A stretch of 4,989 nucleotides of DNA, from IMG/VR virus record IMGVR_UViG_2537561713_000001. One strand, 5' to 3'. This document shows, piece by piece, positions 1-3,000 of this stretch. Position 1 is the stretch's first letter, and each line of letters starts with the position of its first letter. Origin of the DNA: a virus (Duplodnaviria; Heunggongvirae; Uroviricota; Caudoviricetes). The position numbers are program-made.

Positions 1-3000
1 TACTTAAAGTAACCCGCAAATTTTGTGAGTTACTTAAAGTAACCCGCAAATTTTGTGAGTAGTTTAAAGCTACCCGCAATTCTTTAAGGTCATTACCAAC
101 AACTTTGAAAAAGTGTTTCCCTTCAACGAAGCGTACTTTGTTCTCATGATGATTCTGGCGAATACGCACCGGCTCAGTGCCGTAAAGCTGCGCCAAAAGT
201 TCGGTGGTAATAACAGGAATCTGGTTATGGGTGATCGGGGAGAGAGTTTCAACAGAAATTTTAGTTGTCATAATGACGCCCTCTGGTGGTTTCTTAATAA
301 CTCACCACCGACGACGCCAATCGTCTGGTGGTGAACTGTGCAGGGTTGGCGTAACCGGGAAACCGACCGGCGCGGATCTCTCCGCCCCCACACAGCCCAC
401 CATAATTCAGATGTGCGCGTGCATACGACAATAAAAAACACGCTCGCGGCGTGTATCTGTCGCGGTCTCTATCCAGGACGCCAATCCCGACGCCAGATTT
501 TGCTGGCGTTTGAGGAATATAGCCCCGAATAAATCATCACGTCAATCACCTTGTTTTCCTCGCACGATGTCTTAGCCACCGGATATCCCACAGGTGAGCC
601 GTGTAATTGAAGGTTTTTACGTCAGATTCTTTTGGGATTGGCTTGCGTTTATTTCTGGAGCGTTTCGTTGGAAGGTATTTGCAGTTTTCGCAGATGATGT
701 CGGTGATACTTCGTCGCTGTCGCCTCATGCAGCCCTCCTGACGCCCAGCCCGATCGCCATCAATGCCGCTTTGGATACGGTAGTAAACATCCGTCGAGGA
801 CTGATGAACGGTCGCCAAATCAGCAACATTGAGCCTTTGCTGTTTCCCTTCTTCTCCAGCCCTGTCGATGGTTCGATAAAATTAATCCGTCCATCAGTGA
901 TGATGCGAACTTCGTCAACACTCTCCAGAGCCTTGCTGAACCATCCGACAGACATATCCTCTGGCACAAGCATCACTACCGTCTGTCGCTGTTGTATGCA
1001 CTGCTCAGCGGCTTTTTCCACCCACGGCCTGATATTGCTGTACGGTGGGTTATTCCAGATTGCACCGTGGCTTATCCACTCAGAATTTAGCGCGTCGTCA
1101 GCCTCAGTTAGCCAGTGAGCGCACAGAGCGTTTTTGTCGCTCGCAGCTGAATCCAGCCAGAATCCAAACTCAATATCCAGCGCATCAAAAAGCCAGAGCG
1201 GCGTTTGCCAGCAGTCCTTGTCGTGTGCTGGCGTATTTGATTTGATAGTCATGCAGCCTTCCCTTTTCGTTGTGACCATTCATACTCTCGCCGGGAGTCA
1301 TCACTCCACCGCACGTTGCGCTCTGAGCCGAACCAGAACATGATTTCGATAAGCTCAGTCATGCTGGCCTTTCGCATTTTGCTGGTACGCACGCCAAGCA
1401 TGACAACGCCACCGTCGATACCAGGCGCACTTCTTTGCTCCAGTTTTTTGGTCTTAAGCCACAGGGCAGTGAACAGGTCTTTCCAGTCTTCCGGCGCCAG
1501 CCGTTGACCATGCCATAGCACCTGACGCGAAACATCGTTCAGCATCGGCCACATGCGGTCATTCTGCGCTTTGCTGCGCTTGGGTTCTTTAACGTGGACT
1601 TCGTGGGGTGACTTGTCGTCGATGGGTAGTGAGAGAATGGCGTCTATGGCGTTATTTCTGATTGCTTCGTTGCGAAGCAGAAAGGTTTGCTTCATCTCCT
1701 GCTCTCCGGTTCCATTTTTCAGTAGCCGCAGCAACTGATGGTGCCCATGCCACCCTGGCTTCACAGAGGTCACATTCTGCATAGCCCCACACATCAATAT
1801 TTATTCCGGCCTCAACCCACAGACGAGCATTACCGCCGCAAAACGGACATTCTTTTAGCTTTGGCTGGGTTAATGATAGGTCGCTCATGCTCACTCCTTC
1901 ACTTAAAATCCAGACTCCGGATAATTCTGTTGCGCTGAAACTCATTGTTGAGTTTGAACAACCGTCGAAGAACACGGTCACGCGGATAGCGTCGTGCGGC
2001 AGGTGAATGCTCATACAACTCATCAAGCGGCAAACTGGACGATGAACGATACCGATACCAACGCACCAACTCTTCACGAAAATTAGCCCTGACAAGCTCA
2101 GCTATCGTACTCATTTCTTAAAACCTCCTCAAACGCATTCTGACGCATTTTTCATTCTCGCTGCTTATCGGTATACCTTGCACGTGCTTACCTCACCACA
2201 GAGCGATTGTGATGCCTTAAAAGCGATTTATTGAAGTGATATTTGCTTAATCGAAATTCTTTTCTTTGATTCCTGCGGCCCTGATGGCTTTCATTACTGC
2301 AATTACCGTTTTGTCACGCCCATCCTCATAACCCATCGCATAAGCACCTTCTTCACCATCTTTCCAAAGGTCGTCATTCGATTCGGGCCAGTCGATATCC
2401 AGTTCAATAGCTGCTCGCGATGCCTGCCATAAAGCCCACCAATCATTTAAGGAGTGACGAATATCCATGCTTGAAAATGCGAAGTACCTATCACCATTTC
2501 TTGCCTCGGTTATCATCTCGAATGGTAATCTCAATTTTTTGGCAACGTATTCCTCAAACTGCTTTCTTGATTCGTCCATATCAATCACCGTTAGTCGTTT
2601 CACTCACGAATCTGACAAAACCAGCCATGTTAATTTGCATGAGTTTTTTCAACACTTTGTCTCGTCGGCTACGTTTTGGTTTTGGCCTGTGATTGAATCT
2701 TTCACAAACTGGAAGGCTCGATGATTTCCAGTACCTATTACGCCTTGCTCCATCTTCAGCCATATCGGCATGAATAAGGTCTGCGAGTGTGCTCATATTC
2801 ACCTCTTCCAGTTACATTGGTTTTGTAATGTTGCTAGTCATCGTTCGAATAACAAAATGCGTAAGTAACCTTGCTTTCCACATGTAAATCTATTCAAGGC
2901 GAGATAAATCTACGAATACCGGACCTTTGTAATCTGGTCTTGATGCCCTTATGTATGAGCTAATAGTTTGTGCATCTTGCTTGTCCAGATTCATGACTTC

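Follow-up and report, generated by a model that had tools for sequence, protein, structure and literature searches.

A predicted GATC-type methyltransferase gene between ninB and ninE in the nin region of a probable Shiga toxin-converting prophage

Genes of the nin region and their source

We examined a stretch of 4,989 nucleotides of viral DNA (class Caudoviricetes, IMG/VR record IMGVR_UViG_2537561713_000001; hereafter the window) that carries the genes ninB, dam and ninE in tandem, the middle one encoding an orphan adenine methyltransferase (Table 1). All credible genes of the window lie on the minus strand. Gene assignments were made with the cut-offs of curated hidden Markov models (Pfam and TIGRFAM/NCBIfam), and all four products considered here, NinB, the methyltransferase, NinE and an adjoining Lar-family protein, scored above them, in agreement with the identities given in a first-pass annotation of this DNA. 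NinB could be placed in its family both by its profile match and by the location of its gene downstream of the replication genes. The methyltransferase matched TIGR01712 over the entire profile (positions 1-165 of 165; 264.2 bits, cut-off 97.05) as well as PF05869 (2.6e-64, 216.4 bits, cut-off 28.1). NinE is identical to lambda NinE at 55 of 60 residues and scored 35.7 against the narrower NCBIfam subfamily NF007245, under its cut-off of 88. The nin region of lambda has the same position in the operon after the replication genes, the same flanking genes and the same style of ATGA junctions, but it carries ninC and ninD where the window has the methyltransferase gene, and its NinB shares only 66 identities with that of the window in a global alignment of 151 columns. 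This synteny bears out the earlier placement of the methyltransferase in the ninC/ninD position.

The segment is closely related to known phages and prophages. Positions 1-4910 are 100% identical to phage Stx2a_WGPS4, from Escherichia coli O157:H7, and positions 546-1900 are 100% identical to the Shiga toxin (Stx) 2 phage 1717, to CP-1639, to phage 2851 and to others. This interval matched 420 phage records, 119 of which covered most of the query. Nearly full-length copies of the ninB-dam-ninE block were found in 626 of 5426 complete E. coli genomes, in which the Prokaryotic Genome Annotation Pipeline names the products "recombination protein NinB", "phage N-6-adenine-methyltransferase", "NinE family protein" and "Lar family restriction alleviation protein". 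In the records of phage 1717 and VT2-Sakai, these genes are likewise annotated and overlap by the same 4 nt. The ninB model in the window coincides with H0104 of VT2-Sakai, and the outer limits of the block, 546 for the ninE stop and 1695 for the ninB ATG, agree with the annotation of that phage.

Table 1. Features of the ninB-dam-ninE block and of the remainder of the window.
Feature	Position	Strand	Evidence or remark
ninB, 148 aa, NinB/Orf recombination mediator	1249-1695	-	PF05772, 2.1e-48, 163.9 bits (cut-off 23.8), profile positions 1-131 of 131
dam, 175 aa, orphan phage N6-adenine DNA methyltransferase, M.EcoVT2Dam type	725-1252	-	TIGR01712, PF05869, phrog_111
ninE, 60 aa	546-728	-	PF05322, 8e-44, 147.8 bits (cut-off 25)
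Lar-family gene, 78 aa	1652-1888	-	TIGR03655, 61.4 bits (cut-off 39.6); PF14354, 37.8 (cut-off 28.6)
Codons of catalytic motif IV, NPPY, residues 68-71	1040-1051	-	Invariant in alignment with the VT2-Sakai, HP1 and T1 enzymes
ATGA, ninB stop TGA (1249-1251) and dam start ATG (1250-1252)	1249-1252	-	Direct reading; TCAT on the + strand
ATGA, dam stop TGA (725-727) and ninE start ATG (726-728)	725-728	-	Direct reading; TCAT on the + strand
Shine-Dalgarno-like GGGAAGG	1257-1263	-	Within ninB, 5-11 nt upstream of the dam ATG
Shine-Dalgarno AGGAGG	734-739	-	Within dam, 6-11 nt upstream of the ninE ATG
Terminator-like hairpin, 10-bp stem, and T-run	3017-3044	-	Consensus scan; tR2-like position, past the replication/HNH genes and ahead of the nin genes
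Terminator-like hairpin and T-run	438-454	-	Consensus scan; about 90 nt downstream of ninE
DUF7301 paralogues (phrog_1785)	2581-2802 and 1899-2114	-	Flank a 118-aa gene at 2247-2603 (phrog_343)
HNH and AP2-domain endonuclease gene	3043-3654	-	Follows the helicase gene and precedes the nin genes; annotated HNH endonuclease
34-aa hydrophobic open reading frame	3632-3736	-	Bridges the helicase and HNH genes; ATGA junction
Candidate 57-aa open reading frame, phrog_20442	268-441	-	Annotated as hypothetical in Stx2a_WGPS4

Sequence and family of the methyltransferase

The dam gene of VT2-Sakai (H0105) has the same 528-nt length as that of the window, the same ninB and ninE neighbours and the same 4-nt overlaps. 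Its product is identical to the window enzyme at 173 of 175 residues, I60V and L169Q being the only differences found. Identical or near-identical dam genes are carried by Phi24B, HK97, 933W, phage 1717, CP-1639 and phage 2851. The Dam protein of Phi24B, listed as 100% identical to that of VT2-Sakai, has been found in cultures of lysogens, and induction altered its expression (PMC3342100).

More distant relatives are the DNA methyltransferase of T1 (35% identical to the window enzyme) and orf13 of the Haemophilus phage HP1 (37%), which have the same motifs in the same order, although their genes stand in genome contexts that differ from that of the window. The T1 enzyme is longer (237 aa), being extended at its N terminus and containing two insertions. 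Across the alignment of these proteins with the VT2-Sakai enzyme, L33-D34...A37 (LD-x-x-A), N68-P69-P70-Y71-S72 and W-x-T-P are invariant. We take LD-x-x-A to be the S-adenosylmethionine-binding motif I; the NPPY motif that the first-pass annotation had recorded is present as described. Methyltransferases of the TIGR01712/PF05869 type were found by tblastn in 2133 phage records. A sequence search of the PDB retrieved no solved relative (the best E-value, 0.18, is noise), and a single-sequence AlphaFold2 model was unusable (mean predicted local distance difference test score, 43.4).

The methyltransferase is also an orphan, as had been stated: its neighbours encode NinB and NinE, no restriction endonuclease gene adjoins it, and the HNH-AP2 gene, annotated as an HNH endonuclease, is approximately 1.8 kb away. 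An alternative start at an upstream ATG (1279), which would add nine residues, was rejected because the profile match begins at residue 2 of the 175-aa form, because the annotated records examined all use the 528-nt gene, and because the Shine-Dalgarno sequence belongs to the start codon at 1252.

Stx prophages carry other orphan adenine methyltransferases, namely the non-specific M.EcoGII/phiP27 L24 type and the MT-A70 enzymes M.EcoGV/M.EcoPA8orf6770P (rRNA), but these belong to families unrelated to the window enzyme and are encoded at other loci. Membership among the non-specific phage adenine methyltransferases was rejected: Hia5 and Hin1523 are 281-aa alpha-class relatives of Dam with DPPY, M.EcoGII is discussed in the literature as a beta-class enzyme, and the gene of the phiP27 L24/Serratia OS31 p25 type encodes 352 aa and precedes stx. 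The rRNA methyltransferase of Stx phages (Gong et al. 2023), an MT-A70 enzyme with DPPW encoded by a left-arm gene, was likewise rejected as a match.

Target specificity

The first-pass annotation considered the target of the methyltransferase unknown, a statement that is superseded by reports on its 99% identical counterpart. According to passages of PMC6602927, PMC7139368 and PMC7556043, the dam methyltransferase of VT-2 was cloned by Radlinska and Bujnicki (2001; PMID 11720311). A passage of PMC6602927 states that M.EcoVT2Dam "is known to target 5'-GATC-3'", and according to PMC7139368 an activity on GATC like that of Dam "has been shown" for VT-2, with PMC7556043 to similar effect. We infer that M.EcoVT2Dam is the product of H0105, because this is the sole gene named dam in the examined part of the VT2-Sakai record (bases 1-20695), because PMC6602927 lists M.EcoVT2Dam and M.EcoGV, the other Dam-like enzyme of Stx phages, as separate genes of one prophage, and because PMC7556043, a paper of Radlinska's group, gives the Tn1549 enzyme and not VT-2 Dam as the representative GATC methylase of the MT-A70 type. 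Judged by this near-identity, the window enzyme most likely makes G-m6A-TC (m6A, N6-methyladenine), the same mark as host Dam.

The T1 and HP1 members of the family are also described as GATC DNA methyltransferases, that of T1 as a purified enzyme. Avoidance of GATC in enterobacterial phages is an old observation, and the tetranucleotide is depleted in the window (6 observed vs. approximately 24 expected under a Markov model), in the nin region of lambda (17 vs. 33) and in L005 (12 vs. 35). The phages in which this depletion is seen encode a GATC methylase of their own.

Overlapping gene junctions

The coordinates that had been given for the two ATGA overlaps are exact. These are real gene boundaries rather than chance tetranucleotides, because the proteins that begin at the respective ATGs match curated profiles over their full length. 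Stop and start codons share bases on the same strand and in a single transcription unit, and a consensus scan found no terminator-like sites between ninB, dam and ninE. Each downstream gene is also preceded by a Shine-Dalgarno sequence of its own (Table 1).

However, such junctions are not peculiar to these three genes. Between O and Q of lambda, six of ten junctions are ATGA and one is GTGA, and the window contains two further ATGA junctions, at 3733-3736 (helicase gene and 34-aa open reading frame) and at 268-271 (57-aa open reading frame and antirepressor gene). ATGA chaining is the normal packing style of the operon. In phage HK140, the same ATGA joins a lambda-type NinB, which has only 65 identities in 151 columns with the window NinB, to a Dam identical to that of the window at 173 of 175 residues, and the dam/ninE junction is ATGA as well. 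The Dam of Klebsiella phage RCIP0034 (105 identities in 177 columns) has ATGA on both sides with different neighbour genes. Therefore, the type of junction is not tied to the combination of ninB, dam and ninE.

The Lar-family gene

The Lar-family gene lies upstream of ninB and overlaps its start by 44 nt (1652-1695) in another frame. The gene model equals H0103 of VT2-Sakai. RefSeq models for phage 1717 are longer (141 aa for Lar and 181 aa for NinB, compared with 78 and 148 aa in VT2-Sakai), but profile matches and the positions of Shine-Dalgarno sequences favour the short forms of both. Against NF007260, the equivalog model of the Rac protein Lar/RalR, the window protein scored 28.7 bits where the cut-off is 113, and it thus falls short of orthology with the Rac protein. 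No report of alleviation of type I (EcoKI) restriction by this Lar-family protein was found.

Other features of the window

At its far end (4911-4989), the window contains the terminal inverted-repeat end of an IS1203/IS629 insertion sequence (TGAACCGCCCCGG...). Beyond 4910 the window is no longer identical to the intact phage Stx2a_WGPS4, and the DnaB-analogue gene of that phage extends to the equivalent of position 5109; therefore, the helicase gene of the window is interrupted approximately 199 nt after its start. This insertion junction was not seen as a single contiguous piece in the best-matching complete E. coli genomes, among the matches listed. In relatives, the vicinity of the HNH gene contains other insertions, for example ISEc8 in phage 1717.

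At the opposite end, positions 1-79 hold a 30-bp tandem repeat (2.6 copies, 89% matches) within the coding sequence of an ORF6N-domain antirepressor, where it would encode a 10-aa protein repeat. The candidate 57-aa open reading frame begins with a GTG inside the T-run of the 438-454 site, and its stop overlaps the ATG of the antirepressor gene. The hairpin at 3017-3044 reads as a terminator on the + strand too.

Discussion

We consider it highly probable that the window represents the segment from the replication genes to the nin genes in a lambdoid, Stx-converting prophage of E. coli, of the O157:H7 type, and that its nin module contains a GATC-type methyltransferase as a mosaic cassette whose translation is possibly coupled to that of its neighbours. 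By analogy with lambda, the nin genes would be transcribed within the delayed-early rightward operon. The two hairpins may function as terminators and would be overridden by N antitermination, as such terminators are in lambda. The methyltransferase cassette replaces ninC-ninD of lambda and has been swapped between lambdoid phages precisely along gene boundaries. NinB is a predicted recombination mediator of the lambda Orf family, and the methyltransferase is predicted to use S-adenosylmethionine to methylate the N6 position of adenine in GATC. A ribosome that finishes ninB or dam would sit on the next ATG, from which termination-reinitiation could follow. With Dam already supplied by the host, the phage enzyme would most likely serve to keep fast-replicating or newly injected phage DNA fully GATC-methylated; it would then supplement host Dam rather than serve restriction evasion in E. 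coli. We put this role forward tentatively, with somewhat less than even confidence.

Several points weigh against this account. The prophage may be defective in replication, given its interrupted helicase gene. The identity of M.EcoVT2Dam with H0105 is drawn from the gene name in the record and from secondary citations, and two substitutions, I60V and L169Q, separate the window enzyme from the VT2-Sakai protein. GATC methylation by VT-2 was reportedly seen with the cloned gene, according to the passages cited above, and overproduced Dam-like enzymes can methylate off-target, as has been argued for a different Stx-phage enzyme (PMC10810198). Coupling, expression from the window's own prophage and the biological role of the enzyme are predictions.

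The same paper warns that GATC methylation seen under overexpression may be misleading. There is accordingly a small probability that the enzyme naturally acts on RNA or single-stranded DNA, or that it requires a co-encoded partner, its GATC methylation being a side activity. The example behind the warning is M.EcoPA8orf6770P, an MT-A70-type enzyme of Stx phages annotated as a GATC DNA methyltransferase, which with its partner PNB-2 prefers 16S rRNA (PMC10810198). The window enzyme has only 175 residues, and the N-terminal extension and insertions that chiefly distinguish the T1 enzyme are missing from the window, VT2 and HP1 proteins alike. However, M.EcoPA8orf6770P belongs to a different family (DPPW/MT-A70 rather than NPPY/PF05869) and to the left arm rather than the nin region, the T1 and HP1 relatives are regarded as GATC DNA methyltransferases, and the cloned VT-2 gene is reported, in a passage of PMC7139368, to give GATC methylation. 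We therefore judge a different substrate to be the least probable of the alternatives weighed here. Barely more probable is the idea that this small Dam is not simply redundant with the host enzyme: it might need a translationally coupled neighbour for its targeting, for example the single-stranded-DNA-binding NinB, or it might act on replication or recombination intermediates so as to tune prophage induction and thereby Shiga toxin output. A precedent is the MT-A70 enzyme of Stx phages that depends on a partner and governs spontaneous induction (PMC10810198).

The first-pass annotation had instead seen two independent anti-restriction strategies in one operon, with methyl-protection by an enzyme of non-host specificity alongside the Lar homologue. 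An orphan methyltransferase with an intact NPPY motif fits this view, as does a Lar-family gene directly upstream that scores above the family cut-offs, and PHROGs classes Lar-like proteins as host takeover. Membership in the Lar family does hold. However, a mark at GATC, the reported target of the 99% identical enzyme, duplicates that of host Dam, and restriction evasion in E. coli is unlikely because dam+ enterobacterial hosts cannot carry an enzyme that cuts unmethylated GATC. In a strain with two extra homologues of M.EcoVT2Dam, no additional motif was attributable to them (PMC6602927). GATC itself is depleted in the window, and the Lar homologue is distant from the characterised Rac protein, which NCBIfam now names as a DNase toxin, RalR. 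A dual anti-restriction role is thus speculative and weakly supported, and we think it improbable. It had also been proposed that the failure of a lysogen to show a new m6A motif would mark the methyltransferase as inactive. This criterion is flawed, since the methylome of a lysogen in a dam+ host would contain no new motif even with an active enzyme.

The tight translational coupling that had been deduced from the real overlaps is overstated, as dam and ninE both come with a Shine-Dalgarno sequence and overlaps of 4 nt are commonplace throughout the operon. The junctions could be incidental compaction without regulatory effect, each gene being translated from its own site, GGGAAGG for dam and AGGAGG for ninE; the occurrence of ATGA beside unrelated neighbours in RCIP0034, and beside another ninB allele in HK140, is in keeping with this. 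Nevertheless, 4-nt overlaps are the classic arrangement for termination-reinitiation, and their conservation at mosaic joints suggests that the junction itself is under selection. Incidental compaction is a serious contender, if appreciably short of an even prospect, and termination-reinitiation coupling at ninB/dam/ninE remains plausible from the arrangement of the codons.

Since the module is annotated under the same names in phages and E. coli genomes, it is a rediscovery of an already described block, and the GATC specificity reported for the 99% identical enzyme was likewise already known. The block is textbook lambdoid mosaicism, annotated across hundreds of Stx phages and E. coli genomes, and carries little weight as a discovery. 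The gap that remains is the reason why a GATC methylase redundant with that of the host is present in so many phages of enterobacteria. A narrower question is whether the nin-region Dam affects the stability of Stx prophages, because host Dam is reportedly required for stable lysogeny by 933W (Murphy et al. 2008, as cited in a passage of PMC3342100).

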